Positions 11,869-39,832 of a stretch of DNA of 64,000 nucleotides are shown here, piece by piece. The position numbers were made by a program, and so were the translations under genes. A model generated the notes under the pieces. That model was not told where the DNA came from. It did no database searches and saw only the letters and a program-made list of their open reading frames with translations. Every line of letters starts with the position of its first letter. Position 1 is the first letter of the stretch. Origin of the DNA: Candidatus Curtissbacteria bacterium (lineage in GTDB: Bacteria > Patescibacteriota > Microgenomatia > Curtissbacterales > GWA2-41-24); contig JAUSJC010000007.1 of the NCBI GenBank assembly GCA_030647775.1, positions 50,038 through 114,037 on the forward strand, in the 5' to 3' direction.

Positions 11869-11890
11869 TTTTACGTTCTGCTTTGCAGAA

Positions 11891-19622: not shown

Positions 19623-19778
19623 TAAAATACTCTCCTGATTTATAATTGTTTTGCGGGGTGTGGTTCAATATACAGTGCCATGCGGTTCTCGTTCTGCAAT
19701 GCAGAACTGTGGGCCTAGGTAGAATGCGGGATTAGTTGATCGGCTCAACATTCGCTTTCCCCGCCTGCCAGAGCCTAT

Positions 19779-19849
19779 GCGGGTGTAGTTCAATGGTAGA
19801 ACACCAGTTTTCCAAACTGGATACGGCAGTTCGATTCTGCTCACCCGCT
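19779..19849 (+). tRNA. tRNA-Gly(TCC)
   Basis: Acceptor GCGGGTG, anticodon loop UUUCCAA, T-loop GTTCGATTC. Confidence 0.8.
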
Positions 19850-19905
19850 CAGCATTGGCGGGCAGGCAAGCGAAAAAGAGGGGTTCGACTCCCCTATCCC
19901 GCTCC
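19850..19905 (+). other. tRNA-like 3' fragment (T-arm plus acceptor-like end) immediately after tRNA-Gly
   Basis: 'GAGGGGTTCGACTCCCCTATCCCGCTCC' resembles a T-arm and acceptor 3' strand with no D or anticodon arm; it carries the motif 'GGCAGGCAAGCG', also found at 22917 and 23588. Confidence 0.25.
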
Positions 19906-19958
19906 CGTCTTTCGCCGTCCGTCGCCTTTGGCTAAGGACGGCTACAGACGGTAGCTTA

Positions 19959-20201
19959 TTGATGTACTACGTTTATATACTTCAGAGTTCAAAATCTGGA
20001 ATTTTTTACTACGGTTATACGACCGATTTAAAGAAGAGATTTAAAGAACATAACGAAAGCAAGTCTAAATTCACGAGCGGTCATATACCCTGGAAGCTTG
20101 TTTTCTACTGTGCATTTATTGATAAGAAAAAGGCAAAAGATTTTGAACTTTATCTAAAATCAGGATCTGGCAAGGCGTTTGCCTATAAGAGATTAGTTTA
20201 A
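19959..20201 (+). CDS. stand-alone GIY-YIG nuclease-domain protein
   Basis: 'YYVYILQS...YYGYTTDLKKRFKEHN'; paralogous to the gene at 11608..11868. Confidence 0.65.
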   Translation: MMYYVYILQSSKSGIFYYGYTTDLKKRFKEHNESKSKFTSGHIPWKLVFYCAFIDKKKAKDFELYLKSGSGKAFAYKRLV

Positions 20202-20305
20202 GTAGCTTTAGTGAAAGACGTAAGTGGTGATGAAAAAGGTGTTCCGAAACTGTCCGACGCTTAAGCTATGGACAGTGAAGGACACCCTTCACCCGCTCCA
20301 AACGC

Positions 20306-21526
20306 TTATTTATTTCTAAGAGGTAGTTCAACAGTAAAACTTGCGCCCTTAACTGGGACGCTAGAGACTTTAATTCTCCCGCCGTGTATTTTAACTATTT
20401 GTGAGGTAATGAAAAGACCCACACCCAAACCCTTTTTATATTCACCTGGCCCCGATGCTCTTTTAAAAAGATCAAAAATTACCTTCTGTTCAGAAGTTGG
20501 AATTCCTATACCCTGATCTTTAATAATAAATTTGGCCTGATTTCCACTTTTGAAAATACTAATCTCAATTGGTTTACCGTTTCCATATTTTGTGGCATTG
20601 GAGACAAGATTGGTAATTGCTTGTTCTATTCTTACTTTATCCCATTTCCCAACAACAGGAGTACTAGCATTAATTTTTATTTTGTATTTTTTCCTCTTTA
20701 GCATCTCGGAAAAACTCTGGGTTACTTGGTTGGTAATAGTTACCAGGTCGGTATCTTCAGGCTGTAAATTCATCCTCCCTGTTGTAATAAGTGAAACATC
20801 AAGCAAATCGTTAATCATTGATTTCAGCCATTCTATTTGCTGCTCCGAATTTTTTAGAACTTTCATTAATTTGGAAACTGAAAAATTCGCCAAAGAGGCG
20901 CTTCGTATGTTATTTAACTCGCCGTGAAGCTTTAAAAGCATTACAGTAAGGGGCGTTTTTAACTCGTGTGAAACTATAGAAAGAAATTCGTCTCTTGCTT
21001 GAATGTTCTGGAGGGCTATTGTGTGTTCATCGTGTAACTTTATAAAAGTACGTGCATACATTTTTTCTCGCTCCTTCAATTTTTTTACTTCACCGTCTTC
21101 TTTAATCAGATATACCAAAATACTGATAATAATTGCTCCAGCAATAAAAGAAGCAAGTTGGATATACAACGTTATATCCAAGCTGGTATTGTAAAAACCT
21201 CTAAAAAGAAGGTAGGCTTCAAGCGAAATAATTCCTGTAGTAAAGAGAGCGGATTTTAAACCACCCAAAATTGCACTGAAGGCTACGATTATTAGGAAAA
21301 GAAGGTAAAAAGGTGTTTTGTCTGGATACGCCTTTAATAAATCAACTGAAAAAAATATAAGTATTCCAAAAAGTATGTTAAGCCCCAAGGCAGTAATGTA
21401 CTCTAAGAGTTTTTGTGGAGATAATGGAATCGCTACTTTACCCAGTAATTTGTATGAGCGGTGTTTTTTTGAGTAATTATAAACTCGTTTATATAGTTTC
21501 TTTTTAGAATACTGAGTATTTGCCAT
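20306..21526 (-). CDS. membrane sensor histidine kinase
   Basis: N-terminal TM helices, H-box 'SIVSHELKTPLT', N/G1/G2 boxes 'NATKYG', 'DQGIGIP', 'GLGVGL'. Confidence 0.8.
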   Translation of the reverse strand: MANTQYSKKKLYKRVYNYSKKHRSYKLLGKVAIPLSPQKLLEYITALGLNILFGILIFFSVDLLKAYPDKTPFYLLFLIIVAFSAILGGLKSALFTTGIISLEAYLLFRGFYNTSLDITLYIQLASFIAGAIIISILVYLIKEDGEVKKLKEREKMYARTFIKLHDEHTIALQNIQARDEFLSIVSHELKTPLTVMLLKLHGELNNIRSASLANFSVSKLMKVLKNSEQQIEWLKSMINDLLDVSLITTGRMNLQPEDTDLVTITNQVTQSFSEMLKRKKYKIKINASTPVVGKWDKVRIEQAITNLVSNATKYGNGKPIEISIFKSGNQAKFIIKDQGIGIPTSEQKVIFDLFKRASGPGEYKKGLGVGLFITSQIVKIHGGRIKVSSVPVKGASFTVELPLRNK

Positions 21527-21608
21527 TTATGTATGACGAATATATCATGCCTTGTTTTAATAATACAAAGTATTAAGACGCTTACTTCAAATAGGTAGTA
21601 TAATTTCG

Positions 21609-22559
21609 GTGGTGCAAAAAACTATCCTTATTGTTGAAGATGATGATGACATCCGCGACTTTCTAAAAAAAGTCCTGGTAGCTAATAACTACAAAGTAGC
21701 AGAGGCAGCTGATGGGGCTGAGGCCCTGGAGGCTGTAGAAAAATACTTTCCAGATTTAGTACTTCTTGATTTTGGGCTACCCAAAGTTTCAGGAGAAACG
21801 GTTTGTGTAAAAATCAAAAAGGACCACCCGGAGATTATTGTTATTGCTCTAACTGAAAAAGCCAAAAGCGCTGATGTTGTGCACGGCTTACAAATAGGTG
21901 CGGATGATTATATTAGTAAGCCTTTTGTTGCCGAGGAAGTGGTAGCAAGGATAGATGCGAGGTTTAAAGCAGTTGTAAATGGGCAGGCGATACCTAAGGA
22001 AAAACCTGACCGCAATGCTTCGACAAGCGTGCCGGGCGGGAAAGAGCCGAAGATAGGGAAAATAATAATTAGAGAAAGTATTGTCCTAGTTATTATCCGG
22101 CTAATTTTTACAGAGGCTGTTTTCGGATTGTCGCTTTTTCTTCTTAGCATTTTATATTCTTACCTGAGTACATATTTAAATACTACTTACCTCTCAGGCC
22201 TGTACTCTCTAGTTTTAGCAGTAGGGGTTTTAATAAATATTGCAATAGTAATCTTAATTACTTTAAAACGGAACTCGGAATATACTGAAGTCTCTAAAGA
22301 TGGAGTTACAAAGCATAGCGGAATCCTGCAGAGGAAAGAGCAAACATACGCCTGTAATTTTGTTGAGGGAGCTAAACTTAGACAGTCTTTTTTGGGTTTA
22401 CTTTTTAATTACGGGACAATTGAATTATATGATCCAGCGTTGAAAGAGCAAGTTTACTTATTAAGTATAGCAAACCCCAAAAAATATAGTAAAACTATAC
22501 AAAATATTCTTTCAAAAGAAAAAGATCAACCCATACCGTTTATAGCCCCGGCGGGGTAA
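21609..22559 (+). CDS. response-regulator receiver domain fused to a membrane bPH_2/DUF304-like C-terminal domain
   Basis: REC motifs 'ILIVEDDDD', 'VLLDFGLP', 'LTEKAKS'; the C-terminus has two TM helices then 'GILQRKEQTYACNFVEGAKLRQSFLGLLFNYGTIELYD'; no DNA-binding domain. Confidence 0.65.
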   Translation: MVQKTILIVEDDDDIRDFLKKVLVANNYKVAEAADGAEALEAVEKYFPDLVLLDFGLPKVSGETVCVKIKKDHPEIIVIALTEKAKSADVVHGLQIGADDYISKPFVAEEVVARIDARFKAVVNGQAIPKEKPDRNASTSVPGGKEPKIGKIIIRESIVLVIIRLIFTEAVFGLSLFLLSILYSYLSTYLNTTYLSGLYSLVLAVGVLINIAIVILITLKRNSEYTEVSKDGVTKHSGILQRKEQTYACNFVEGAKLRQSFLGLLFNYGTIELYDPALKEQVYLLSIANPKKYSKTIQNILSKEKDQPIPFIAPAG

Positions 22560-22731
22560 GGGGGAATGACAACATTGGCGGTGGCTATCGGACGGTTTAT
22601 TTTGCCTCTCCTGGGCTTGATAAGCCCCCATTAATTTTCTAAAATGGGCTATAATCTGCATGAAGAAGCGGGGTTCGGAATAAGCATATCTTGCGATTCT
22701 AAGAATCTAAATTTGCGTCTCCCGCTCCAGC

Positions 22732-22834
22732 GCCCGCGTAGCTCAACGGATAGAGCAGTCGCGTTCTAAGCGATTGTGGGGGTACGCTTTTTCGCGTAGC
22801 GAAAAACTCGAGAAGTCAGATCCCTCCGCGGGCA
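22732..22834 (+). tRNA. tRNA-Arg(TCT)-like gene carrying a roughly 35-nt hairpin insertion in the T-loop
   Basis: Collinear with the canonical tRNA-Arg(TCT) at 29913..29985 through the acceptor, D-arm and anticodon arm (loop GUUCUAA). The T-loop TTCGAAT is replaced by 'T-ACGCTTTTTCGCGTAGCGAAAAACTCGAGAAGTCAG-AT'; the T-stem (GGGGG/CCCTC) and acceptor are preserved. Confidence 0.5.
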
Positions 22835-22914
22835 CAGGAAATTATGGCGTGTAGCGGAAGGATTGGGCTCTGCCCGATGCCTACCCACCCCGACTTTTCG
22901 CGCGCTAAATTCCA

Positions 22915-23000
22915 AAAGTACCGGGTGCAGGCAAGCGGAGCTGTACCAAAAAAATCCGAAGTGCTATTGCCCTGAGTTTATCGAATGGGCTAAAATTAGC
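22915..23000. repeat. 87-bp direct repeat, copy 1 (promoter/5'UTR-like), upstream of the DUF4258 toxin gene
   Basis: Shares 'ATCCGAAGTGCTATTGCCCTGAGTTTATCGAATGGGCTAAAATTAGC' (47/47) with 23583..23667, and the upstream 40 nt at about 80% identity. Confidence 0.7.
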
Positions 23001-23011
23001 CAACTTAGACG

Positions 23012-23266
23012 ATGAAAATTATTTATACACAACATTCGGAAGAAAAACTTAAACGGAGAGATATTAAGAAGTTCAAAATTAATAAAAAACTAATTAAATC
23101 AATTTTAAAAGATCCTCAAATTAAATCCAAAACAAAGTATGGTGATAGCTGCGCCCTGTCAGCTATCAATGGTGACCACGACATAAGAATTATCTATGAT
23201 ATAATAAGTAAAGATAATTCTAAGGTTATAACCTTTCATATCTCTAAAAGAGGCAGGTACGGATGA
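23012..23266 (+). CDS. DUF4258-family toxin (toxin of a DUF4258/DUF2283 TA pair)
   Basis: 'IIYTQHSEEKLKRRDI...IRIIYD...KVITFHISK' matches the DUF4258 pattern; 4-nt overlap (ATGA) with the downstream partner. Confidence 0.55.
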   Translation: MKIIYTQHSEEKLKRRDIKKFKINKKLIKSILKDPQIKSKTKYGDSCALSAINGDHDIRIIYDIISKDNSKVITFHISKRGRYG

Positions 23267-23475
23267 AATTAAAATATTACAAAAAAGACGACATTTTGGT
23301 TATGAATTTTTCCTCAAAAGCTGTTGAGGATTCGTATGAAGTGGAAAGCGCGATTTTAGAAGTCGATAAAGAGAACAATCCTGTATCACTAGAAATTCTG
23401 CATGCTTCCAACTTTTTTAATACAGCCTCCAAAGAACTTCCAATCGGAATCAAGCAAAAATTTTTCTCAGCCTAA
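23263..23475 (+). CDS. DUF2283-family antitoxin
   Basis: 'MKLKYYKKDDILVMNF...VSLEILHASN' matches DUF2283 (consensus 'MKIEYDKEADALYI...GIEILNAS'). Confidence 0.55.
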   Translation: MKLKYYKKDDILVMNFSSKAVEDSYEVESAILEVDKENNPVSLEILHASNFFNTASKELPIGIKQKFFSA

Positions 23476-23582
23476 CTCCTTGCGCTTTCGCACATATCAT
23501 CACAAACTGTGATGATATGGATTAAATACAATCGTAAAAGGTCACCATATATTTTTGCGCTGAGGATTCCCAAAACGCGCCA

Positions 23583-23667
23583 AAGTACCGGGCGCAGGCA
23601 AGCGGCCCTATCCCCAAAAAATCCGAAGTGCTATTGCCCTGAGTTTATCGAATGGGCTAAAATTAGC
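23583..23667. repeat. 87-bp direct repeat, copy 2, upstream of the 732-aa ORF
   Basis: See copy 1. Confidence 0.7.
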
Positions 23668-23687
23668 TCGTTTAAATTTATATGTAA

Positions 23688-25886
23688 ATGGCACAACAAT
23701 ACCTTGAATTAAAAACAAGCGAAGGCTCTGTAAGAAAATATCCAAACGTCATGTGGTTTCCTCGTTCCAAGACTGACCCCCAAGAAATAAGAGAGGTGCT
23801 TAAACTTGCCTTAAAAATACAAGACGAAAATTCTGATAAATATTTCAATGATAAATTATTGGGTGAACACATGGCACGAATAGGATCAATTAATGTCCTG
23901 GGGATGAAAGGGGAAGATTATATAAAATCGTACCAAGGAAAAAGTATTGGAGACGTTTCTTATATAACCAATGCTCGCATGTTGATGCGACTTTTTAGAT
24001 TCCTTGGTCTTGCCACTAGACTTGAAAGGGGGAAATACGCAATTACTGTACTTGGTAGAACCTATGTAAAATTTAATGGGGACTTCCCTTCTCAGCTAAA
24101 TGGGGAAAATGAAGAACAGATACTGCTACAATTACTCGCAAACTTTGCATTTTACTGCGTTAACGACGACAGCAAGTACAGAGATTCGTCTTTTCAAGTT
24201 AGGCCTTTCATTTGGCTACTCAACACATTAGCTATTGAGCCGCAATGCATTATTCAACTTATCGTAACCGCTTATGCTTCCAAAAGTGAAGGTTTTAATG
24301 AAATTAAAAGGATTAAAAATATTTTAAGTAATCTCAAATCAGGGAAAAGCACCCTTAAAGACGAGTTCACAAATCTAGGGCTGAATCCTAACGACTATAG
24401 CTGCGTTCATAATTTTTACGATAGTGCAAAGATATTAGTTTACTTGGGAATAAGCTTGGGGCTAGTAAAAAAAACCAAAAGCCCTACATATGGAAGAAAA
24501 ATTGCGGGAAACGCTAAGTATCTTAAAAACGCGTCTGCTTTTTACAATCTTACCGTAAAGGGCGAGAAGTATTTAGAAGAAAATATTCAGAAAAAACTCA
24601 TTTATTACTCCGACTTATACAAGGTACTAGGAAACAAAGACGTCCTTCAGTGCTCCTTTATATTAGCGGTGCTCAACACTTCAATCGGCGCTAAGAAAAT
24701 TGAGTCCATAAATATTAATTTTTTCAAAAAAATCTTGGGAAACAAATGGGAAAAATATACAAACTCTCTTAGAAAAAACCTGCAAATTGAAATAGAAATA
24801 AAAGATGGAAAAGTTGCTCTAAAAGATCGGATTTCATTCAACTTTTTCCAAAGCATGCCCCCCGAGTTTTTATACGATGAACCTATGAAAAATTGGTACA
24901 CTGTATTCATGGAGGAATTTAGTGACAAAAAATCTAAGTTATTAAATACAACCACATCAAAAATGGAAGAGCAATTTTCGGGAGAAATAACATCCAAATT
25001 TATACTAGACAAAGATAAAAATCTTGCATACGAAGTTCCTTCACTCACTCTCAAAGAAGCACAAGATTACATAAAGTACGAATACATGGACAATATTTTT
25101 GGGGGTCAAGATAGATATGCTAGTAGGATTTCTCCAACAAATTCAGTAATTCTAGTGGGTGATAAGGTTCATGTAGACAATGTCATTGACGCTCTTGACT
25201 TATTAATTCCGCTTAGACATCCAGACGAAAGGTTAAGAAAATTTATCGATGCCAACATTTCTCAGTTGCTAAAAACCTTTTTGTCCAGATCTGATACATG
25301 GGCAAAGGATCAACATTACGCATGGGTAAGAAACTGCTTTAGACTTTTTGGGGCTACGGCAATTTACTCCGGTTCTAGCGGCATGCTTTCTAGAGCAGAC
25401 ATTAGCATCATTGATCCATTTCTTGGTGGCGTTGAAGCAAAAAGCCCTAGTGAGAACAGGGGCAGTATAAACACAAAAGCAATTAGACAAGCACTCGATG
25501 CTAAAGTTCAGGTTGTAGATTTATATCCCGAAAAGAAAGGCATTCCAAAAATTGCGATAGCAATCGGAAGAAGAATTACTCCATTAGCAATTGCAGAAGA
25601 AAAGAAATGGCGATCAGGAGAAAATCAACCAGTACTTCTAATAACTGATGTAGTTCTTTACTATTTAACACTTAAGTCACTTGATATTCCCTTTGACGAC
25701 AAAGATTTAATTAGACTTTTTACCCAAAATGTAGGACTGCTCGATACGAAATCTTTGAGTGTATCCCTTGAAGAAATAATGAATAACAAAAAAATAGATA
25801 GTCAGGTTAAAGAGAAAATTAGAGAGGAGCTCAATAACTTAGGGGGATTGGTAAGTGGCTCGATTGAGGGAGCAATCGAGGAGTAA
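23688..25886 (+). CDS. large hypothetical protein (732 aa); candidate restriction endonuclease or defense effector partnered with two DNA methyltransferases
   Basis: No recognised family. A possible PD-(D/E)xK-like 'IIDPFLGGVEAK' lies near residue 570. Convergent with, and overlapping by 56 nt, the first MTase gene. Confidence 0.35.
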   Translation: MAQQYLELKTSEGSVRKYPNVMWFPRSKTDPQEIREVLKLALKIQDENSDKYFNDKLLGEHMARIGSINVLGMKGEDYIKSYQGKSIGDVSYITNARMLMRLFRFLGLATRLERGKYAITVLGRTYVKFNGDFPSQLNGENEEQILLQLLANFAFYCVNDDSKYRDSSFQVRPFIWLLNTLAIEPQCIIQLIVTAYASKSEGFNEIKRIKNILSNLKSGKSTLKDEFTNLGLNPNDYSCVHNFYDSAKILVYLGISLGLVKKTKSPTYGRKIAGNAKYLKNASAFYNLTVKGEKYLEENIQKKLIYYSDLYKVLGNKDVLQCSFILAVLNTSIGAKKIESININFFKKILGNKWEKYTNSLRKNLQIEIEIKDGKVALKDRISFNFFQSMPPEFLYDEPMKNWYTVFMEEFSDKKSKLLNTTTSKMEEQFSGEITSKFILDKDKNLAYEVPSLTLKEAQDYIKYEYMDNIFGGQDRYASRISPTNSVILVGDKVHVDNVIDALDLLIPLRHPDERLRKFIDANISQLLKTFLSRSDTWAKDQHYAWVRNCFRLFGATAIYSGSSGMLSRADISIIDPFLGGVEAKSPSENRGSINTKAIRQALDAKVQVVDLYPEKKGIPKIAIAIGRRITPLAIAEEKKWRSGENQPVLLITDVVLYYLTLKSLDIPFDDKDLIRLFTQNVGLLDTKSLSVSLEEIMNNKKIDSQVKEKIREELNNLGGLVSGSIEGAIEE

Positions 25887-26640
25887 TTTCATTTAATCTT
25901 TTCTCCGCCATTTCTACATATTTAGGATTTAATTCAAAACCAATATATTTTCGATCATTCATTCTTGCACTTACGCATTCACTCCCTGACCCCACGAATG
26001 GCATCAACAATGTGTCTCCCTGATTTGAAAAATGGTTGATGATTTTATGACATATGGCTAACGGTTTTTGCGTAGGATGATCAACTTTCTCGTTAGCAAA
26101 TCTTTTACCCGCTAACGTAGGAATTTCCCATATATCTCCACCATGCTTTCCTTCAGGATGTGGCGTCCAGACCTTACCATTTTTTATAATTTTATTCCTT
26201 AATCTCTCCGTACTTTTATAAGGTTCCCTAATCGTATGGTAAGTGTAATCTTTACCTTTATAAAACCATAATAGAGGTTCGTAAGCGGCTGCAGGCGCGC
26301 GTCTATACATTGAAAAGTTATTTTCATAATGCCAAATAAATAATCTCCCATAGAATAACCCTATATCGTATAAGTATGCCTGAATGTACCCAATATTATG
26401 ATGAATACCATATACAAAAAGAGAACCATTTGGCTTTAGGACTCGCTTTGATTCCTTTAGCCATTTTTTCATCCACTTAAACCATTCTTCATGATTCTTG
26501 AGATTCCATTTTTCACCATTTCCAAAATCTTTTTCTATTCCATATGGAGGATCTGCAATAATTAGGTTAATTGATTCATTGTCAATTTTTTTATATAAAT
26601 CAAGACAATCACCGGTATAAATTTTATTTAAATTAAACAT
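25831..26640 (-). CDS. DNA methyltransferase, beta-class N6A/N4C family (DPPY)
   Basis: Motif IV 'ADPPYG' near the N-terminus, motif I 'MPFVGSGSE' near the C-terminus (beta-class order). Confidence 0.8.
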   Translation of the reverse strand: MFNLNKIYTGDCLDLYKKIDNESINLIIADPPYGIEKDFGNGEKWNLKNHEEWFKWMKKWLKESKRVLKPNGSLFVYGIHHNIGYIQAYLYDIGLFYGRLFIWHYENNFSMYRRAPAAAYEPLLWFYKGKDYTYHTIREPYKSTERLRNKIIKNGKVWTPHPEGKHGGDIWEIPTLAGKRFANEKVDHPTQKPLAICHKIINHFSNQGDTLLMPFVGSGSECVSARMNDRKYIGFELNPKYVEMAEKRLNEITPRLLPQSSHLPIPLSY

Positions 26641-26641
26641 G

Positions 26642-27499
26642 CTACTTATTGTTCTGCAAGATTAGTATATATTGATTGTGAATATTGGGAACATAAGAAA
26701 AAGGATATCCATAGGGAAAGATTTTTTTGCGGCTTTGATAGAGTATAGTTATTCCTTTCAATTTATAATTCTTTTGTTCTAATTTGTTAGCAAGATCTGC
26801 ATGGAACATATAATATCTATCTTTGTGTCTAAAATCGCTAACTACTATACATAAATATTTCTTTGGTTTTAAAATCCGACTACAATCATTGAAAAAACCG
26901 GACAAAATTTCAAGAAACTGATCATAATCAGTAATATTTCCTAAATCTTCTTTAAGTTCACTATATTTTGTGTCTAGACCATTTGAAATCCGAGTGGAAA
27001 TGACTTTATGGTCAGCCTTTTTATTTAAAATACTCCAGTACGGAGGACTCGTTACAATAAAATCAAAATGGTCATCTTTAAAATCTTCGACCACTTTCAG
27101 CGCATCTCCTTGAATAACAGACTGGTCTTTATTGTCAAATAAACCATTGAGTTCAGTCTCAAGTCTCTTTTTCGTTAACTCCACATATTTAGGAACTAAC
27201 TCAATACCGACACCCCTTCGATTTAATATAGCGCAGGCCTTAAGAGTAGATCCTACTCCAACAAAAGGGTCTAATACTTTCTGCCCTGATTTCGTAAAGA
27301 ACCTGATTAGCCTTCCCACGTCTTGGAAAGAATATGGAGCGGGATGTTGTTTCTCAATTTGAGCTTCTTTATGGCCTGCCCCTAATCCTTTTTGAACATA
27401 CACCGAGATTGTTTCGGGAATCCATTCTGAGGCTGAAAGATCATTAAGATTATTTACAAGTTTCCTCTTCAACTGCCCATCGTTTATATTTAAACCCAT
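26642..27499 (-). CDS. DNA methyltransferase (SPPY motif, probable N4-cytosine type)
   Basis: Motif I 'DPFVGVGST' then motif IV 'TSPPYW'; SPPY/SPPF is characteristic of m4C methyltransferases. Confidence 0.7.
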   Translation of the reverse strand: MGLNINDGQLKRKLVNNLNDLSASEWIPETISVYVQKGLGAGHKEAQIEKQHPAPYSFQDVGRLIRFFTKSGQKVLDPFVGVGSTLKACAILNRRGVGIELVPKYVELTKKRLETELNGLFDNKDQSVIQGDALKVVEDFKDDHFDFIVTSPPYWSILNKKADHKVISTRISNGLDTKYSELKEDLGNITDYDQFLEILSGFFNDCSRILKPKKYLCIVVSDFRHKDRYYMFHADLANKLEQKNYKLKGITILYQSRKKIFPYGYPFSYVPNIHNQYILILQNNK

Positions 27500-27671
27500 T
27501 GTTATTATTAAATTTATTCTACACAGTATCTAACCACAATTAACACACAACATTAAATATACGAATAAAACCCGAAGATGTCAAGCGTGGACTTGACCCT
27601 AATTAAACCTAGTTGGGTTGTGTAACAACAAAAAACCAAGTAAGATCTATCACAAATCTTAAAATAATTAG

Positions 27672-27938
27672 ATGAACCCACTAGAACACATAGAAAAAAT
27701 TCAACAAGTAACAGACATCAACGAAAAAATAAGGTTGCGAACAGAATTTAAAGAAAAATATCCAAACGAATTTGAAGAATACATGAAGGCAATACCCAAA
27801 CAAAAACAGAGACCGCCACTTTGCTATGGTTGCAAGCATTTTATAAAAAGCGGTGATTGCGAATTAAATCTATTCCCGATTGGGAATGTTTTTAAGGATG
27901 TTATTAATTACACATGTCCCTCTTTTGAGAAAAAATAA
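27672..27938 (+). CDS. hypothetical small Cys-containing protein
   Basis: 88-aa ORF containing 'CYGCKHF...C...C'. Confidence 0.3.
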   Translation: MNPLEHIEKIQQVTDINEKIRLRTEFKEKYPNEFEEYMKAIPKQKQRPPLCYGCKHFIKSGDCELNLFPIGNVFKDVINYTCPSFEKK

Positions 27939-28051
27939 ACGGAAATTGACACCTTTCCTCCCAAATAATAATCTATACTTGTGTTAAAAACCCTGGAAAA
28001 AGAAAAAGCATATAAGGTTGGCCGGAAGAAATTGCAATTGTGGATGGGAAA

Positions 28052-28639
28052 TTAGGAATTATTCTTTAAGATTCCTTCCTTTTGCAGTCTTCTTAAAATA
28101 ACAGCGTCTGAAACTTGAAAAATTTCAGGTAGATCCTGCACAGCTGGAGCAATGATTTCCGGTAATTCCATGGATGGAATTTTTCCGAGCCGCTTTTTTA
28201 ATTCTTCAAGCAATTGCTCAGTTGGAACCAAAACCAATCCCGCAAAAGTATGTGCTTGTATTTCAGTAAACTTGTAAACTTGCTCATCTATTCGATCATG
28301 AGATGTAAGATATTCTTCAAAATTATTCGGTCCGTACTTTTCGTACCATTCCTTGTGCAATATTAAATGACCAACTTCATGGGCGATGGAAAATCTCGTT
28401 CTTTCGGGAAAACGCGTGAAATAATTTTCATCAACCGTTATTTGGGTAAAGTCCGAACTTATAAATGCATCTACTCCAATTAATGATCTAATGCCTGGTA
28501 CCGCGAACAGAGCAATTCCCATTTTGCTTTCAACTATATTTTCAATTGGAATTGGTAGGGTTAGCGAGGAATGATATGTCTGTAAAAATTTATCTGCTGC
28601 TCGTGCTACATCTACTAATCTTAAATTCGGTCCTTGCAT
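28052..28639 (-). CDS. ImmA/IrrE-family metallo-endopeptidase (DUF955)
   Basis: 'SIAHEVGHLILH' HExxH motif in the DUF955 context; immediately downstream of an XRE HTH gene. Confidence 0.7.
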   Translation of the reverse strand: MQGPNLRLVDVARAADKFLQTYHSSLTLPIPIENIVESKMGIALFAVPGIRSLIGVDAFISSDFTQITVDENYFTRFPERTRFSIAHEVGHLILHKEWYEKYGPNNFEEYLTSHDRIDEQVYKFTEIQAHTFAGLVLVPTEQLLEELKKRLGKIPSMELPEIIAPAVQDLPEIFQVSDAVILRRLQKEGILKNNS

Positions 28640-28642
28640 CCA

Positions 28643-29038
28643 TTATTCCTTCTTACCGACATCATTGAGAAGCTTGATTAATTGGATAATTTTCTTTTTA
28701 TCCAACTTTTCACCTCTAGCAGTTCTGTAAAAGGCAGGCAAAATAGAAAGAATGTGTGGACTTTTAAGCAAATCCTCTGGGAGTTTTCCTTTTGCTGCAT
28801 GAGCAAGATCAAAGAATATTGTCCATTCTTCGCTGTCGCGCGGAATTTTTAAGGCTAATGCGTATCCTTCAAGTTTTTGTTTATCTATGCTTGGAGGAAG
28901 AATATTTCTTTCAAGTCTGCTGATGTTACCCGGGTCGTAGCTATACCTTTCACAAAAAGATCTCAAGGTAAACCCTAAGGTTATTCTTTTTAATCTGAAA
29001 AATTCTCCGAAGGTTTGAGCAGTGTCTTGACTTTTCAC
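28643..29038 (-). CDS. XRE-family helix-turn-helix transcriptional regulator
   Basis: N-terminal 'FGEFFRLKRITLGFTLRSFCERYSYDPGNISRLERN' HTH_3-like segment; 4-nt gap before the ImmA partner. Confidence 0.6.
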   Translation of the reverse strand: MKSQDTAQTFGEFFRLKRITLGFTLRSFCERYSYDPGNISRLERNILPPSIDKQKLEGYALALKIPRDSEEWTIFFDLAHAAKGKLPEDLLKSPHILSILPAFYRTARGEKLDKKKIIQLIKLLNDVGKKE

Positions 29039-29129
29039 AGGAAGTGTTGTAAAAATATTACAACGTTATTTTAACGCAGCACTTGACTATTGTCAAGTCG
29101 ACAAAAAATTAGAAAGGCGGTGAATAAAA

Positions 29130-29339
29130 ATGGCAGTATTTAAGATCTACAAAGACGTTCAAGGCTATTACCGATGGCGATTCCGAGCAGCTAACAATAA
29201 AATCATCGCCGACAGCGGTGAAGGATACGTAAAGTGGCAAGATGCGAAAGCAGGAATAGATTTTATTAAGAAATATGCACCTGATGCCGAAGTTAAAGAC
29301 TTAACCGCACAAAAAACTGCTCGAGGACTCTTTAGTTAA
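29130..29339 (+). CDS. DUF1508 (YegP-like) protein
   Basis: 'FKIYKDVQGYYRWRFRAANNKIIADSGEGY' matches the DUF1508 repeat. Confidence 0.55.
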   Translation: MAVFKIYKDVQGYYRWRFRAANNKIIADSGEGYVKWQDAKAGIDFIKKYAPDAEVKDLTAQKTARGLFS

Positions 29340-29391
29340 AGGAGGTGAAGTCGATGAAATTTATACAAATTGCGGTTACCCGCGCAGGGGA

Positions 29392-29553
29392 AATGTATTT
29401 AGTATTTAGGATTGTGGTTTAGTCCCAGTACTAGATTCCGGGCTTGGAGTCGGCGAGGGAATTACTGTTGGATTAAATACGGGTTCGACAAGCTCACTGC
29501 TATAACTTGTACCTCCGCGATATCTGTCACCTTAAGCACGTTGGGATTTTAGC
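29392..29553. repeat. repeat family C copy 1 (about 160 nt)
   Basis: About 80% identical to 31528..31667. It contains the hairpin ACAAGCT-N9-AGCTTGT and the conserved 'CCGCGATATCTGTCACCTTA'. Confidence 0.65.
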
Positions 29554-29831
29554 TTCGTTTCTTGAGCAGCTAATTAATTTTGGCTTGGATGGTAAAAAAC
29601 TAAAACTGTCCGAACTTAAAAAACACTTTAGTAGGTTGCAGATAGATCCGGCGAAAAAAAGGTATTTGAAGTTTTTGCTCTCCTCGCCCCAATGAGCCAA
29701 ACACACATTCTAACTGAGAGGCAAAAGCTTCTTTGAATGAGCGCGATTGGCAGGATTTTTTTCTGATCTGGAATGTTATAATCCCCAAAGCAGCAGACCG
29801 GTTAGAATTTCGTCCAACCAGCCGCTCCCAT

Positions 29832-29877
29832 GCGCCTGTAGCTCAACGGATATCAGCAGCGCTTCGCGCTCTGATAT
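29832..29877 (+). other. tRNA 5' fragment (acceptor plus D-arm of the tRNA-Arg family) fused to an unrelated hairpin
   Basis: 'GCGCCTGTAGCTCAACGGATA' is identical to the 5' 21 nt of the tRNA-Arg-like genes, then 'TCAGCAGCGCTTCGCGCTCTGATA'. Confidence 0.4.
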
Positions 29878-29912
29878 TTTTAAGTTACACTTAAAAAGAG
29901 AGCAAATTTTAT

Positions 29913-29985
29913 GCGCCTGTAGCTCAATGGATAGAGCACTCGCGTTCTAAGCGATTGGTTGGGGGTTCGAATCCCTCCAGGCGCA
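29913..29985 (+). tRNA. tRNA-Arg(TCT), canonical copy
   Basis: Acceptor GCGCCTG/CAGGCGC, anticodon loop GUUCUAA, T-loop GGTTCGAATCC. Confidence 0.75.
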
Positions 29986-29995
29986 CATAAAATTA

Positions 29996-30075
29996 ATCGC
30001 GTTCTAAGCGAATGATTGGGGGTTCGCTTTTTTCGCGCAGCGAAAAACTCGAGAAGTCAGATCCCTCCAGGCGCA
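29996..30075 (+). other. tRNA-Arg(TCT) 3'-half fragment (anticodon stem to 3' end) carrying the T-loop hairpin insertion; att-like
   Basis: 'TCGCGTTCTAAGCGAATGATTGGGGGTTCG-CTTTTTTCGCGCAGCGAAAAACTCGAGAAGTCAG-ATCCCTCCAGGCGCA'; the same insertion as at 22732..22834 with compensatory changes in its stem. Confidence 0.5.
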
Positions 30076-30244
30076 CACACGTCTTGCTCCGACGTAAACG
30101 CTTCAGTTTCTCTCATGTATAATATTTTTAGTGAAGATTTCCGGCGGGCTTGTTGTTAATCTTATTGCAGGTTTAAAAGGACTTATGTCAAAAACATATA
30201 CCAAAAATTAAGAAAGATGTTTGTGGAGATGAATAAAAATTACT

Positions 30245-30772
30245 ATGGCTAAAAAACAGGCAATAAAAAAATTACCGGATAATCAAATCGCTTTCTATCA
30301 ATCACCTGATGGATCAGTGAATATTGAAGTGCTGTTTGCCGAAGAAAATATCTGGCTCACCCAAAAGAAAATGGCAGAGCTTTTTGATTGCTCAACAGAT
30401 AATATCTCGCTTCATCTAAAAAACATCTTTGGGGAAAAAGAATTGGATAAAGATTCAGTTACCGAGGAATACTCGACAACCATGACAAGCGGTTTAATGA
30501 GAGGGTCAAATATAGTTGCCTCGGTGCCAAAATATCTAGTGATGCCAGAAGAGAGAGAAGAGCAATTCAACAGAAAAATAAAGTCGCCTTTATTCGCAGA
30601 AAGATTCAAAGATGATAATTGGCAAATCCTTTATTTTGATTCAATCAGAAATAATTGGAAAAAACTTAAACAGAAAAATATAAAACTTGGCTCATTAGTG
30701 GGTAAAAAAGGCCCAGAAGCACTCCGCCCTAATTCTAATGAAAATGATAATGGACAAATAGGACTTTTATAA
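30245..30772 (+). CDS. RhuM-like (virulence protein RhuM family) DNA-binding protein
   Basis: 'IAFYQSPDGSVNIEVLFAEENIWLTQKKMAELFDCSTDNISLHLKNIF' matches the RhuM N-terminal signature. Confidence 0.55.
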   Translation: MAKKQAIKKLPDNQIAFYQSPDGSVNIEVLFAEENIWLTQKKMAELFDCSTDNISLHLKNIFGEKELDKDSVTEEYSTTMTSGLMRGSNIVASVPKYLVMPEEREEQFNRKIKSPLFAERFKDDNWQILYFDSIRNNWKKLKQKNIKLGSLVGKKGPEALRPNSNENDNGQIGLL

Positions 30773-30815
30773 TAAATGGGGCTTATTGATCACAAAAATC
30801 TAAAAATTATTAAGA

Positions 30816-31313
30816 TTATTTTAAATACCTATAAATTCCGAAAACATGAATAGCTTTTCTCTTTATCACGTTTATATGTGTTTCTAGCTTATAAATATTT
30901 GCCGGAAAGTCCTTGATATCTTTTGTCATAAGATAAATGTTTTTACCATATTTAACTAATGTTCCACCTAATAAAAGGTCTACGATTGAGATATCTTTAC
31001 CTTCTATTCCGTAAAGTTTTAATAACCCGATTGCATTGTCAAATACACCCTTTTCCAGAGGTATAATTGCATCAATGATTTCATCAAGGAATTTTTTCTT
31101 TTCTTCAAAAATCTTCAATTCAAAAGAACCTTTAGTAAACTCAATTAACACGGCATTGACGGTAACTAAAGTCACGCCATTTCCTTTCAATTCATTGAAG
31201 AATTTGCCATATTCACCCGGATTATGGAACGCGTCTATAAAGACATTTGTATCAAGAAGCAAATGAGAATTTTTAAGAGTTTGGAAAAATCCCTGAGGTG
31301 TTACTATTTGCAT
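30816..31313 (-). CDS. PIN-domain toxin (VapC-like)
   Basis: 'LLLDTNVFIDA' N-terminal acidic motif; further conserved acidic residues downstream. Confidence 0.65.
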   Translation of the reverse strand: MQIVTPQGFFQTLKNSHLLLDTNVFIDAFHNPGEYGKFFNELKGNGVTLVTVNAVLIEFTKGSFELKIFEEKKKFLDEIIDAIIPLEKGVFDNAIGLLKLYGIEGKDISIVDLLLGGTLVKYGKNIYLMTKDIKDFPANIYKLETHINVIKRKAIHVFGIYRYLK

Positions 31314-31449
31314 CGCTTCTAGTTTTTTCGAGATACCTTTCCTCTTCGTCGAAATATTTCTTTATTTTAGCTGCAAGTTTTTCAAACTTATTAATATCAA
31401 TCTTTTTGCCCTTTTTAGTTTTGGGAAGAGTTTCACTTTTTGTTTTCAT
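31273..31449 (-). CDS. putative antitoxin partner of the PIN toxin
   Basis: Small basic ORF 'MKTKSETLPKTKKGKKIDINKFEKLAAKIKKYF...' overlapping the PIN gene start. The ORF-track start at 31509 would run into repeat C2, so the internal Met is preferred. Confidence 0.4.
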   Translation of the reverse strand: MKTKSETLPKTKKGKKIDINKFEKLAAKIKKYFDEEERYLEKTRSDANSNTSGIFPNS

Positions 31450-31527
31450 TTTGATGACCTCTAAATATAGTATACCATTTGTCGTAAATACTCTAAGTAC
31501 CCAAAACAATTCCCGTCGCGCCTTGGA

Positions 31528-31667
31528 GATGTATTTAGTTTAGGGCCTGGAAGCGCCAGATGTTGACTCTACCGGGCTGGGAGTCGGTGAGGAGATTACG
31601 GTGGCGTTAAATACGGGTTCGACAAGCTCACTGCTATAGCTTGTACCTCCGCGATATCTGTCACCTT
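31528..31667. repeat. repeat family C copy 2
   Basis: See copy 1. Confidence 0.65.
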
Positions 31668-31904
31668 ATTTCAATAGACTTTCTTTGGAAGTTCAAAATA
31701 GAAATCTTATGAGGTGTGTTTATAGCTCTTGGAGCAAAGATTAAAACGACTCTTGTGGTGCTAATCTGTCGTATTCCGTAGATAATTTTTTTTGCAACTT
31801 ATTCGAACCACGTACCGCTTCTTTAATTATTCGTTTCTTTTCTTTAGCGGGTAATTCGAAGAAGTTTGTACCTTTGTCTTTTTTGATCAAGAAATTGAGT
31901 ACTT

Positions 31905-32633
31905 TCATTTAATTAATCTCTCCAGATCTTGTTCATTGTACCCTATTTTAAGGTGGTTATCAATCATATCGATATTAAACTTAGTATTCTCTTGCTCATT
32001 TGTATAATTCTTCTCAACTAAATGAAGCTCAATTTTATCACCAAGAATCTTTTTCACTTTATTCACGTTCGCTTTAGCTAAAAAGAACGAATTTATAAAC
32101 ATATCTTTTGAAACATGTCTTCCTTCAACCTTTTCTCTCTTCTTTGTAAAATCCCATGCAATAAGAGGATCCTGGTATAGGTAGAAAATACCAACCTTCC
32201 GACCTCTATTTAAGGCTCTCTTAACATCTTGAAACCCTTTACCAAAGTCAGAAAACGTTCCATCAACAATAACATTCTGACTTCTTTTTTGAACTTCATC
32301 GTAAAGTTTCTCAACGCCTAATGCGGCCGCCCCTTGAAACTTGTAAGCATTGCCGCCCGTGTAGCCTGGAATAATATCCCTAATTTCGTCAGCGTCTATC
32401 CTAATAATTTTTGTATTGGGATCGTAGTTTTTTATAAACGACTTAGAATATTCTGTTTTGCCTGCACCAGGGGAACCGGCCATAAAAATTGTGAAAGGGT
32501 TGGATACGCCAGGAAATTTAGTAGGGTCAGCAAATTTTTCAATAAGCAAATTCTTATTATCTCTAACCCATTTCTTTGCTTTTTCTTCTAGATCATTATT
32601 ATTCATCGACTGATTATAGCAATTAAGGATCAC
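31905..32633 (-). CDS. zeta-toxin family P-loop kinase
   Basis: Walker A 'GSPGAGKT' in a zeta-toxin-like context ('IFMAGSPGAGKTEYS...RIDADE'). Confidence 0.7.
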   Translation of the reverse strand: MILNCYNQSMNNNDLEEKAKKWVRDNKNLLIEKFADPTKFPGVSNPFTIFMAGSPGAGKTEYSKSFIKNYDPNTKIIRIDADEIRDIIPGYTGGNAYKFQGAAALGVEKLYDEVQKRSQNVIVDGTFSDFGKGFQDVKRALNRGRKVGIFYLYQDPLIAWDFTKKREKVEGRHVSKDMFINSFFLAKANVNKVKKILGDKIELHLVEKNYTNEQENTKFNIDMIDNHLKIGYNEQDLERLIK

Positions 32634-32659
32634 ACCTTACTGCGCCGAAGAAGTAGACT

Positions 32660-32742
32660 GAGGGACAGGAGAAGAAATCATTGTTGCATTGAATACTTGA
32701 ACCTCGGCGATATCTGTCACCTTAAGCACGTTGGTATTTTAC
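32660..32742. repeat. repeat family C copy 3 (internally deleted)
   Basis: 'ACCTCGGCGATATCTGTCACCTTAAGCACGTTGGTATTTTA' matches the 3' 45 nt of copy 1 (including the 'AAGCACGTTGG' tail); the central hairpin is missing. Confidence 0.55.
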
Positions 32743-32798
32743 CAAAATTGACCTAATTTAGTTTTGGTGAGTACGTTTGCGGTTGTCTAATATATAAT

Positions 32799-33344
32799 TT
32801 GCTTGTGGGACTGATTGTAAATGTCTTAATAAGACTCGGAATCTTTTATTTTCTGGGGGAGGTTTTGCTTTTTGCCGACGACCCGAGGTTTGCCGGCAAA
32901 GCCATCCCGATCAGGAACTTGGTGATTGTAATTTCGCTTAGCCTGCTTTTTCCGCTTCTCTATTTTTTAAAGAAGAAGTCAAGAAAATATCCTTTGTGGT
33001 TCGACAACCTTTACCTTTCAATTTTTCTTTTGGATATGGCCGGCAACTCCTTTAATTTATACGACCGCTATTTTTATTTTGATTTAATCCCCCATTTCCA
33101 CGGGACCGGCGCCATCAGCGCGGTTATGGCCGGGGCTTTTGGGCTTGGCGGTTTGGCGGCAGTCGGGCTTGCCAATATTATCCATATGGTTTTAGAGGCG
33201 CAGGAATATTACACGGATGTTTTCTTTAAAACCCATAACGTGCGGGGTATTGGCGATACGGTCAATGACCTTAGCGTCGGGCTGATCGGTTCGGCTGTCT
33301 ACATTGGGTTTTTGATTTTGGTGAAGAGACTGGCGAAAAAGTGA
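32799..33344 (+). CDS. hypothetical polytopic membrane protein
   Basis: 181 aa, about five TM helices. Confidence 0.4.
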   Translation: MLVGLIVNVLIRLGIFYFLGEVLLFADDPRFAGKAIPIRNLVIVISLSLLFPLLYFLKKKSRKYPLWFDNLYLSIFLLDMAGNSFNLYDRYFYFDLIPHFHGTGAISAVMAGAFGLGGLAAVGLANIIHMVLEAQEYYTDVFFKTHNVRGIGDTVNDLSVGLIGSAVYIGFLILVKRLAKK

Positions 33345-33355
33345 CGCTAATTTTT

Positions 33356-34732: not shown

Positions 34733-34948
34733 TTAGATAATTACCTGAACAATAGAAAGAACCAAAAATAAAAACGCGAGAATTACGGTGAAAGCGACAA
34801 AAAGTTTTTCGATTCCCCTTTTGGACCTGTAAAATCCCCCTTGGCCGCCGAATACTGTTGAGATACCCGAGCCTTTGGCCTGCATGAGAATGATGAGGAT
34901 GAGAAGAGCAGAAATTATTATTTGGACTATGAGTAAAATAGTTTTCAT
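34733..34948 (-). CDS. secG: preprotein translocase subunit SecG
   Basis: 71 aa, two TM helices, 'LMQAKGSGISTVFGG' signature. Confidence 0.7.
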   Translation of the reverse strand: MKTILLIVQIIISALLILIILMQAKGSGISTVFGGQGGFYRSKRGIEKLFVAFTVILAFLFLVLSIVQVII

Positions 34949-34984
34949 TTTTTAATACTTGTTTTAAAAAACAAGCTCTCTTAT

Positions 34985-35989: not shown

Positions 35990-36108
35990 TAAGGGTAATG
36001 ATAACGGTTAAGGCATTGAGGCGTCAATCAAATTGTCGATTGTTGATGGTTGATAGTTGATTGGGATTATTGTTCGAACGAAGTGAGAACTTTCCTTAAC
36101 AATTCCCG

Positions 36109-36540: not shown

Positions 36541-36564
36541 GTATCATGTGTCAAGTATTGAGTG

Positions 36565-37824: not shown

Positions 37825-37836
37825 GGGGGAATTTTA

Positions 37837-39753: not shown

Positions 39754-39832
39754 GAACTAGTGTCAGGTATAAGAGAGCTTATTGTCAACTCCGTTGATAA
39801 GCACGTATCAGGTGTCAAGTCCGCCCACTATT

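Follow-up and report, generated by a model that had tools for sequence, protein, structure and literature searches.

Contents and extent of the tRNA-Gly/tRNA-Arg locus

The subject of this study is a segment of about 7 kb lying between two tRNA-Arg(UCU)-derived sequences in a 64,000-nt stretch of Candidatus Curtissbacteria DNA (GCA_030647775.1, contig JAUSJC010000007.1, positions 50,038-114,037, forward strand), hereafter called the window. The segment carries a putative restriction-modification (R-M) module, a putative toxin-antitoxin (TA) pair and several small genes of regulatory type, and a first-pass annotation had described it as a single accessory island with limits at 22732-30078. All features named there could be found again within a few bases of the coordinates given, including the tRNA-Arg-derived sequences at both ends. 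The host is a bacterium of the candidate phyla radiation, and the window comes from a metagenome-assembled genome; the exonuclease/phosphatase-family protein encoded at 18852-19622 has 100% identity to one from a Candidatus Curtissbacteria metagenome-assembled genome. An archaeal origin was considered and rejected, as the genes are of bacterial type (SecG, a two-component system, a sortase). The window contains nine canonical tRNA genes, dispersed among the protein-coding genes (ARAGORN, Rfam). Protein families were searched in Pfam, PADLOC, NCBIfam and PHROGs, and tRNA and other RNA genes with ARAGORN and Rfam (tRNA gathering score 29).

The DNA between the two tRNA-Arg copies is foreign in composition and, as had been proposed, accessory. 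GC content at 22840-29830 is 0.362, in comparison to 0.436 +/- 0.018 (minimum 0.402) in 7-kb chunks from the remaining window, and the tetranucleotide distance is 0.285, while the maximum in 300 core chunks is 0.165. The proposed limits, on the other hand, are not supported, as atypical lineage-specific DNA spans approximately 19.9-32.7 kb and reaches beyond the reported interval on both sides. The flanks have an equally low GC content (0.368 at 19950-22700 and 0.365 at 30080-33350). Taken together, the three adjoining segments (19.95-22.7, 22.84-29.83 and 30.08-33.35 kb) show GC contents of 0.36-0.37 and tetranucleotide distances of 0.28-0.30; the distance of the 7-kb segment is larger than that of any core chunk of the same size, and those of the two shorter ones come close to the largest core values.

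A related Curtissbacteria contig, recovered twice (L006 and L007), shows what the locus looks like elsewhere. The protein encoded by its exonuclease/phosphatase-family gene (Exo; 18852-19622 in the window) is 67% identical to ours. The gene order there is M10 peptidase, Exo, a 954-aa gene, tRNA-Gly, tRNA-Arg, and then SBP_bac_5, SecG and CofD, with a holin-like gene, UvrC and a transglutaminase-core gene conserved further to the right. In this relative tRNA-Gly(UCC) and tRNA-Arg(UCU) are approximately 12-14 nt apart, no tRNA fragments are present, and tRNA-Arg(UCU) is one normal gene with no T-loop insert. The spacing between the same tRNAs in the window is 10,062 nt, and the distance from Exo to the SBP gene is 13.7 kb versus 4.2 kb. 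The final stretch conserved before the variable region is 19571-19633 (+), which is 87% identical to L006 13675-13737, directly upstream of that contig's tRNA-Gly, and would represent the promoter region of an ancestral tRNA-Gly/tRNA-Arg operon. In a Berkelbacteria contig (L003; CAIRFN010000006, GenBank), too, Arg(UCU) comes after Gly(UCC), at a distance of 133 nt. By parsimony, the DNA between the two tRNAs, and most of that from tRNA-Arg to approximately 32.7 kb, would have been gained in the lineage of the window. In the comparison of related genomes, which the first-pass annotation had proposed, the tRNAs are adjacent in a relative; the relative is a distant one, however, and the gap in the window is one of 10 kb rather than 7.3 kb. 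In another relative (L011), positions 1-8200, upstream of Exo, hold a phage integrase, a small terminase, a primase-like gene and a serine recombinase, and from this gene content the left side of the neighbourhood appears to be variable too.

The R-M module consists of R (23688-25886, +), a 732-aa protein, and of two N4/N6 DNA methyltransferase genes, M1 (25831-26640, -) and M2 (26642-27499, -), both of which match PF01555 (N6_N4_Mtase; E 1e-49 and 2e-25, respectively) and PADLOC MTase_II. The methyltransferase genes are convergent with R, and the 3' ends of M1 and R overlap by 56 nt. R itself has no match in Pfam, NCBIfam, PADLOC or PDB sequences, and its family consists of metagenome proteins of approximately 710-760 aa, 47-67% identical. 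An AlphaFold2 model built from the family alignment (mean pLDDT 87.6) places winged-helix recognition domains at the N-terminus and a PD-(D/E)XK domain at the C-terminus. Foldseek matched it to FokI (1fok, E 8e-10), to N.BspD6I (6qnz, E 1e-7) and to the BpuJI recognition domain (E 9e-4). Residues D571, E583 and K585, which make up a D...ExK motif, are invariant in 28 homologues. The earlier suggestion of an R-M module made of the 732-aa orphan and the two methyltransferases is thus supported, and, judging from the model, R would be a FokI-like type IIS endonuclease which, together with M1 and M2, forms a type IIS R-M system. R would read an asymmetric site and cut beside it, at a distance, by means of its PD-(D/E)XK domain, and M1 and M2 presumably each protect one strand of that site.

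As in FokI and related type IIS systems, multiple winged-helix recognition domains are followed by PD-(D/E)XK in the predicted fold, and two adenine/cytosine-N methyltransferase activities are predicted, as would be expected for an asymmetric site. The differences are that R shares only 9-14% sequence identity with FokI-type structures, that it is 732 aa long versus approximately 580, and that the methyltransferases are encoded by two separate genes rather than by one fusion. Homologous modules with the same R-M1-M2 order were found in two further contigs (L012 and L013), neither of which has tRNA genes. As the DNA homology in these contigs (approximately 68% identity) is confined to window positions 23712-27492, R-M1-M2 appears to be a portable unit of approximately 3.8 kb whose history is separate from that of the remaining 7 kb. 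Its setting in these contigs suggests that it may ride on other mobile elements elsewhere; a protein search for R in viral contigs found no relatives. In the regions L012 545-8325 and L013 10001-14027 a small HTH_17 gene follows each module, and the module of L012 is approximately 2 kb from a gene for a 555-aa large serine recombinase.

Upstream of R lie a DUF4258-like gene (23012-23266, +) and a DUF2283 gene (23263-23475, +), overlapping by 4 nt. The DUF2283 match is clear (42.7 bits, cut-off 23, E 6e-11), while that to DUF4258 is weak (18.1 bits) and stays below the Pfam cut-off of 25. The pair is bracketed by an 86-nt direct repeat (22915-23000 and 23582-23667, +; 93% identical), both copies of which carry a promoter-like TTGCCC-18-TAAAAT, and the second copy is directly upstream of R. 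The pair looks like a cassette that inserted upstream of R and, in doing so, would have duplicated 86 nt of the R promoter region. A similar DUF4258/DUF2283-like pair is found in a JGI metagenome contig (L004, Ga0209542_10003529; L005, from a second sample, carries the identical sequence) at 7853-8312, approximately 1 kb downstream of a tRNA-Phe 3' fragment.

The rest of the segment encodes an 88-aa open reading frame (ORF; 27672-27938, +), an ImmA/IrrE-type M78 metallopeptidase (28052-28639, -), a 131-aa putative helix-turn-helix (HTH) repressor (28643-29038, -) and a DUF1508 protein (29130-29339, +; Pfam E 6e-16). The metallopeptidase matches Peptidase_M78 (E 2e-9), contains the HEXXH motif as HEVGH, also matches CapP- and RmrA-type regulators in PADLOC, and had no relatives in a protein search of viral contigs. 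Its 131-aa neighbour has weak matches only (PADLOC HTH_VI at 3e-4, PHROG 3 at 1.6e-4). Together with DUF1508, these two genes resemble the regulatory leftovers that are common in integrated elements. Of the gene content originally assigned, DUF2283, M78, DUF1508 and the methyltransferases were therefore recovered as such, while DUF4258 remains below its cut-off and the supposed XRE partner of the M78 protease is a weak HTH match (E approximately 2-3e-4).

On the left, between tRNA-Gly and the segment, are an 80-aa GIY-YIG gene (19959-20201, +), a histidine kinase (20306-21526, -) and a response regulator with a bacterial PH domain (21609-22559, +), all identified in Pfam and all missing between the two tRNAs of L006/L007. 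The right continuation (30245-32633), which is not common to L006, encodes a RhuM-like N-terminal domain protein (30245-30772, +; PADLOC PDC-S05), a PIN-domain protein (30816-31313, -; Pfam PIN), its 78-aa neighbour (an ORF, 31273-31509, -) and a zeta toxin (31905-32633, -; Pfam Zeta_toxin). The RhuM-like protein, 175 aa long, matches the PDC-S05 candidate defence families over residues ~12-84 only, and it may be a truncated or short form. Exact-match protein searches with this protein, the histidine kinase and the response regulator gave no hit. A direct repeat of approximately 150 nt (29384-29536, core 29438-29534, +; and 31520-31670, core 31572-31668; the 97-nt cores are 91% identical) brackets 2.1 kb comprising the right tRNA cluster, the RhuM-like gene and the PIN pair. 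Three neighbouring segments are hence each bracketed by direct repeats of ~90-150 nt: the TA pair, the R-M-bearing 7 kb and this 2.1-kb segment. The ~150-nt repeat contains a T-loop-like GGGTTCGAC and has no Rfam match. The idea that its 97-nt core is a structured RNA was rejected, as there are two copies and covariation is absent.

Interrupted and nested tRNA genes

The left boundary had been described as an insertion-bearing tRNA-Arg-like gene, and we can confirm this. This copy (L*, 22732-22835, +) is a full-length tRNA-Arg(UCU)-like gene scoring 41.8 bits with the Rfam tRNA model, with 36 unmatched bases in the T-loop, where an insertion of 34-35 nt lies at 22785-22819. ARAGORN does not call it in its native form; an in-silico version lacking the insert and given an A at position 58 is called tRNA-Arg(tct). 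The strands of the acceptor stem, GCCCGCG/CGCGGGC, are mutually paired, and a promoter-like site is present 5' of the gene at 22617-22645. U55 of the tRNA T-loop is near-universal, and L* has an A in its place.

The right boundary (29832-30076, +) is, as reported, a cluster of a 5' fragment (29832-29852, +; 21 nt, 20 of which are identical to the intact gene), an intact inner tRNA-Arg(UCU) (29913-29985, +; ARAGORN tRNA-Arg(tct), Rfam 67.3 bits) and a 3' fragment extending from the anticodon stem to the 3' end (29997-30076, +). The intact inner gene is the sole canonical tRNA-Arg(UCU) in the window. What the first-pass annotation did not contain is that the 3' fragment has the same T-loop insert as L* (34 nt, 30027-30060). 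The outer pieces follow each other in the order of a single gene: the 5' strand of acceptor and D-stem (29832-29845), two hairpins inserted in the D-loop (29850-29895), of which the first is a 12-bp stem followed by five T's and is terminator-like, the D-stem 3' strand GAGC and then A (29900-29904), the intact inner tRNA enclosed by a perfect 9-bp inverted repeat AATTTTATG/CATAAAATT (~29905-29913 and ~29986-29994), and, in 29997-30076, the anticodon arm, the insert-bearing T arm and the matching acceptor 3' strand. With the inserts removed and an A added at position 58, ARAGORN recognizes this reconstituted outer gene as tRNA-Arg(tct). From sequence, folds, the terminator-like site and this reconstitution, we read the right cluster as a single continuous tRNA-Arg copy with the insertion, broken by hairpins in the D-loop and by a complete tRNA at ~26/27. 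The start of the 3' part at the anticodon stem, previously taken for an integrase crossover, would then simply be the place where a single tRNA-Arg is interrupted.

L* and the reconstituted outer right copy are identical at 94 of 107 positions, and three compensated acceptor pairs account for six of the 13 differences: the right copy has GCGCCTG/CAGGCGC, again mutually paired, and the inner intact tRNA has the same strands. The two insert-bearing copies share perfect blocks of 15 nt (the anticodon stem-loop) and of ~30 nt, the latter by direct reading, and a 29-nt insert-bearing block has two matches in the window versus 0.00 expected in shuffles. The promoter-like DNA upstream of one copy can be aligned with that of the other. 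As each copy is self-complementary in its acceptor stem and three compensated pairs set them apart, L* and the outer right copy appear to be paralogues, not recombinant hybrids. Both are probably non-functional as tRNAs, because removal of the insert leaves no canonical T-loop (A58 is missing) and L* has no U55. The compensated acceptors would nevertheless imply that both backbones were functional tRNAs once, or that they came from different sources.

This arrangement is not confined to tRNA-Arg(UCU). The tRNA-Gly cluster of the window (19653-19903, +), defined from sequence, fold and ARAGORN, contains a short 5' fragment of borderline alignment score (19653-19669, +), then hairpins, and then an outer tRNA-Gly(UCC) in two halves (19726-19760 and 19868-19903, +). 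This outer gene is split just after the anticodon by an imperfect helix of approximately 20 bp which holds a complete inner tRNA-Gly(UCC) (19779-19850, +; 93% identical to the relative's tRNA-Gly). The flank duplex has an energy of -31.5 kcal/mol, reached by none of 300 shuffles, and the joined outer halves are recognized by ARAGORN as tRNA-Gly(tcc). Upstream of tRNA-Arg(UCG) there is a 5' fragment with a D-loop hairpin, a 52-nt element (window 11437-11488) made of the first 13 nt of the tRNA and the hairpin, and 49 of its 52 nt are identical at 5442-5493 of a further Curtissbacteria contig (L009). The whole region is 73% identical and the spacer behind the element has diverged, and this element may be a conserved leader. 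Not all of the tRNA-derived pieces are thus recent debris.

Comparable structures occur in other contigs. In L003, an apparent outer tRNA-Thr(CGU) at 1397-1579 is broken in the anticodon loop by a 13-bp helix and a complete inner tRNA-Thr; in-silico joins of its outer halves gave no tRNA-Thr in ARAGORN. In the same contig, tRNA-Pro is followed by a tRNA-Pro 3' fragment into which a hairpin of 24 nt is inserted (3700-3767), and tRNA-Arg(UCU) by a T-arm fragment with a 14-nt insert (4105-4146). In L004, a T-arm-plus-acceptor fragment follows tRNA-Val (6510-6575), and 26 nt of its T-loop insert are identical to that of the window; tRNA-Phe is followed by a tRNA-Phe 3' fragment whose insert is a CGCGCGTAGCGCG hairpin (6838-6895). 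We counted three occurrences of CGCGYAGCG in the window (0.35 expected) and one in L004, all of them within tRNA-derived inserts.

Two other tRNA genes of the window deserve a mention here. A 90-nt tRNA with a long variable arm (12279-12368, -) has the anticodon AUC according to ARAGORN, and its flanks form a helix of ~24 bp, with an energy that none of 300 shuffles attained. In bacteria an A at position 34 is very uncommon. For tRNA-Gln (2424-2495, -) there is a perfect 17-nt copy of the 3' end at 2992-3008, approximately 500 nt away on the opposite strand; a small ORF lies between the gene and this copy, and the flanks of tRNA-Gln are partly complementary. A single family of inverted-repeat transposons carrying tRNAs was considered and rejected, as the inverted repeats of the four tRNAs that have such flanks share no sequence.

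As to the nature of the inserts, several known classes were tried and none fits. A group I intron can be dismissed, since the inserts are 34-140 nt long while the ribozyme core takes about 200 nt or more, and since Rfam found no Intron_gpI, whether across the window (gathering score) or, with E <= 10, in both tRNA-Arg regions. A bulge-helix-bulge intron does not agree with the T-arm fold, which is a 4-bp helix (UUCG/CGAG, with a mismatch in L*) that has a 2x2 internal loop and a ~9-10-nt bulge next to it instead of two 3-nt bulges. No small self-cleaving ribozyme was matched in Rfam, nor was a hammerhead core seen by eye, and the T-loop hairpin was rejected as an intrinsic terminator, as no U tail follows it. 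The insert positions (D-loop, ~26/27, anticodon loop 35/36 or 36/37, T-loop) recall those reported for archaeal introns. The archaeal splicing endonuclease is not known from bacteria. A survey of tRNA introns in Patescibacteria found group I introns in the anticodon loop only (PMC13011429). The likeness to these cases is that tRNA genes are interrupted in a candidate-phylum bacterium; they differ in that no group I core or Rfam intron hit is found here and, as compared with known tRNA introns generally, in that two of the inserts hold a complete second tRNA with the same anticodon. We found no description of such nested or fragmented tRNA arrangements in the literature that we searched. The tRNA-derived architecture is unusual, and its borders are not classic integration scars.

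Origin of the locus

The reading that we favour, with a probability of roughly 0.55, is that of an accessory locus of mosaic make-up, to which several insertions at a tRNA-Gly/tRNA-Arg hotspot contributed and which now lacks a recombinase of its own. A hypervariable locus of ~13 kb between Exo and the SBP_bac_5 gene, the middle part of which is the interval originally reported, would have grown by separate insertions inside the ancestral tRNA-Gly(UCC)-tRNA-Arg(UCU) operon. As R-M1-M2 moves separately and the TA pair has 86-nt repeats of its own, the 7 kb would be a mosaic of separate modules, and the earlier description of a single integrated element is difficult to maintain. The flanking repeats would be two paralogous units, each made of a promoter and a tRNA-Arg(UCU) with the same T-loop insertion, 88% identical to each other. 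Gene conversion probably maintained the similarity of their central parts, and hairpins and the complete tRNA-Arg(UCU) would later have broken up the right unit.

The absence of an integrase, noted in the first-pass annotation, stands for the ten annotated ORFs searched at 23012-30772. It extends to the ORFs at 19959-33344, none of which matched a recombinase family in Pfam, PADLOC, NCBIfam or PHROGs, with intergenic six-frame pieces inspected only. With no recombinase and no hybrid attachment (att) sites, the segment is most likely fixed in place, and its persistence would rest on post-segregational killing by the R-M and TA genes.

R-M genes between long direct repeats have been ascribed to site-specific integration, to insertion in which a long target is duplicated, or to chance insertion between repeats (PMC2853133). 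Our locus is similar in that its segments are flanked by direct repeats, and the repeat of the TA pair is the promoter region of the neighbouring R. In the published cases, on the other hand, the repeat is found once at the empty site of a close relative, the insert usually consists of R-M genes alone, and the repeats are near 100% identical, whereas those around the 7 kb are 88% identical (PMC2853133).

Several observations speak against a mosaic that grew by insertion and has come to rest. A badly decayed recombinase remnant might be present, the intergenic six-frame fragments having been inspected and not profile-searched. The comparators are distant (approximately 67-70% identity in flanking genes), and the "empty site" is ancestral by parsimony and not a recent empty allele. 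Logan contigs from an independent assembly (SRR13727527) match the window exactly at 23638-29502 and 31609-39857 and end inside repeats, so that only one assembly supports how the sequence is joined across the tRNA clusters; the ~150-nt repeat at 29384-29536 and 31520-31670 explains these breakpoints. Three compensated acceptor pairs fit poorly with the drift of two pseudogenes after duplication. Finally, the identity of 26 nt of the insert with an unrelated metagenome contig points to mobility or function of the insert; gene conversion would explain identical central blocks within one genome, but not 26 nt shared with another organism.

A different idea, which we regard as tentative and less likely than not, is that the tRNA-derived pieces might belong to an undescribed class of elements of candidate-phylum bacteria, and accessory genes would gather at the recombination hotspots that these elements make. 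One option is a small mobile insertion targeting tRNA loops, for which the 34-nt insert with its CGCGYAGCG hairpin might be an example; the other is that of functional tRNA-mimicking structures serving as leaders or carriers, among which the same-anticodon nested tRNAs and the conserved 5'-fragment leader could be counted. The insert is better conserved than the host tRNA sequence, both within the genome and across genomes. Searches for further copies found little. As an exact 21-mer the insert had no match in GTDB representative genomes, and a gapped pattern for T-loop inserts of 25-55 nt in tRNA-Arg(UCU) picked out a single contig, from Berkelbacteria, in which a stray T-arm fragment has an insert of smaller size. 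A metagenome scan gave one other copy only, of identical sequence in two samples, two DNA scans of viral contigs gave no match, and in ~190 kb of collected sequence the T-arm variant, used as an nhmmer profile, had no additional hits.

The original interpretation, a single integrative island in tRNA-Arg(UCU) with the insert-bearing copies as attL/attR and an integrase that was lost or acts in trans, we now consider unlikely. It has some points in its favour. Direct repeats of ~100 nt derived from a tRNA flank foreign-looking DNA with island-typical cargo, and tRNA genes are classic integration targets at which partial copies are left (PMC9897764; PMC2853133). The T-arm variant after tRNA-Val in L004 resembles a stray att-like scar. 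Likewise, the locus shares with tRNA islands of the Islander type the foreign composition, the tRNA-derived direct repeats, the cargo of R-M, TA and regulator genes, and the adjacency of the tRNAs in a relative (PMC9897764).

The details, on the other hand, speak against this model. A crossover within the tRNA body would give hybrid acceptors, and neither copy is such a hybrid, so that an interpretation as attL/attR is not supported. Had the crossover been at the extreme 3' end, neither copy would be hybrid, and it would escape the acceptor-strand test. The similarity between the copies, moreover, spans the promoter-like region upstream, and thus the repeated unit is a whole small transcription unit rather than the 3' part of a tRNA. 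The intact tRNA and the 3' fragment, 11 nt apart, lie at the same end, while at the opposite end there is L*, complete but disrupted and with a promoter-like region of its own, homologous to that of the right copy. An att copy with a 34-nt insert in its T-loop could not restore a working tRNA. Further arguments are the composite nature of the 7 kb, the atypical DNA on both of its sides and the missing recombinase. Equivalent tRNA fragments, moreover, occur at tRNAs with no island and therefore count against attL/attR. In Islander-type islands one intact tRNA is accompanied by a displaced 3' fragment as attL/attR (PMC9897764). Here no recombinase is present, the repeats are self-consistent promoter-plus-tRNA units with a tRNA-disabling T-loop insert, the intact tRNA lies inside one of them, and the segment would be a mosaic within a larger variable region.

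Somewhat less probable still is the idea that the tRNA-derived sequences are working RNA elements, the insert being intervening or regulatory, the 5' fragments leaders and the nested tRNAs processed precursors, with accessory genes that would merely have accumulated between two such genes. On one hand, all three acceptor differences are compensated, the insert outconserves its host tRNA and has its 26 identical nucleotides elsewhere, the 52-nt leader is kept at 49/52 in L009, promoter-like sites precede both tRNA-Arg copies, and CGCGYAGCG is confined to tRNA-derived inserts. On the other hand, the inserts are too short for a group I intron, have no bulge-helix-bulge, and gave nothing but tRNA in Rfam. 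A58 is missing after insert removal, L* has no U55, and a terminator-like hairpin lies inside the outer right copy. With two or three sequences per element, there are too few for a covariation statistic.

Free-standing GIY-YIG homing endonucleases could also be imagined to have cut tRNA genes, the nested and partial tRNAs being left by break repair and the cargo arriving separately, which we find very improbable. The window has two paralogous GIY-YIG genes (80-86 aa, 44% identity), each directly after tRNA genes. One belongs to a 306-nt cassette (11585-11890, ORF 11608-11868) placed exactly between tRNA-Arg(UCG) and tRNA-Pro and bounded by two TTCTGC-N3-GCAGAA hairpins; in L009 the spacing between the same two tRNAs is 6 nt. 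This hairpin has its third and last copy in the tRNA-Gly cluster, which the second GIY-YIG gene (19959-20201) follows. SegB of phage T4, a homing endonuclease of the GIY-YIG type, acts on a cluster of tRNA genes (PMC2330249), and the likeness lies in small GIY-YIG genes beside tRNA genes, with one clear insertion in comparison to a relative. Unlike SegB, the proteins of the window consist of a catalytic domain only, with no DNA-binding domain for site specificity. No such gene adjoins the tRNA-Arg(UCU) copies, L009 has the tRNA-Arg(UCG) 5' fragment but no GIY-YIG cassette, and the mechanism would still have to account for the flanking inverted repeats.

An assembly artefact, in which mis-joined strain variants supplied the tRNA pieces, is hardly credible: the genome is indeed metagenome-assembled, the Logan contigs stop in repeats and do not span the tRNA clusters, and contigs of two other relatives end just after Exo or inside the adjacent tRNA-Gly, but comparable structures are present in independent assemblies (CAIRFN010000006, two JGI metagenomes, L009), the copies differ by compensated changes and unique hairpin inserts, and the repeats are ~150 nt at most.

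Implications

Seen as an island, the locus is a routine one, with R-M and TA genes gathered at a tRNA hotspot and ordinary cargo. Two other aspects seem of more general value. A fold and a likely function can be proposed for a family of ~730-aa "hypothetical" proteins found in many metagenomes, and this family could supply new type IIS specificities. Furthermore, tRNA genes in these reduced genomes are ringed by structured tRNA-derived sequences which standard tools miss or misread. If these sequences are mobile or functional, they would bear on the expression and replacement of tRNA genes in candidate-phylum bacteria, on the recruitment of accessory DNA with no resident integrases, and on the use of tRNA fragments as boundaries in automated island finders. 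The tRNA-derived architecture merits a systematic survey.

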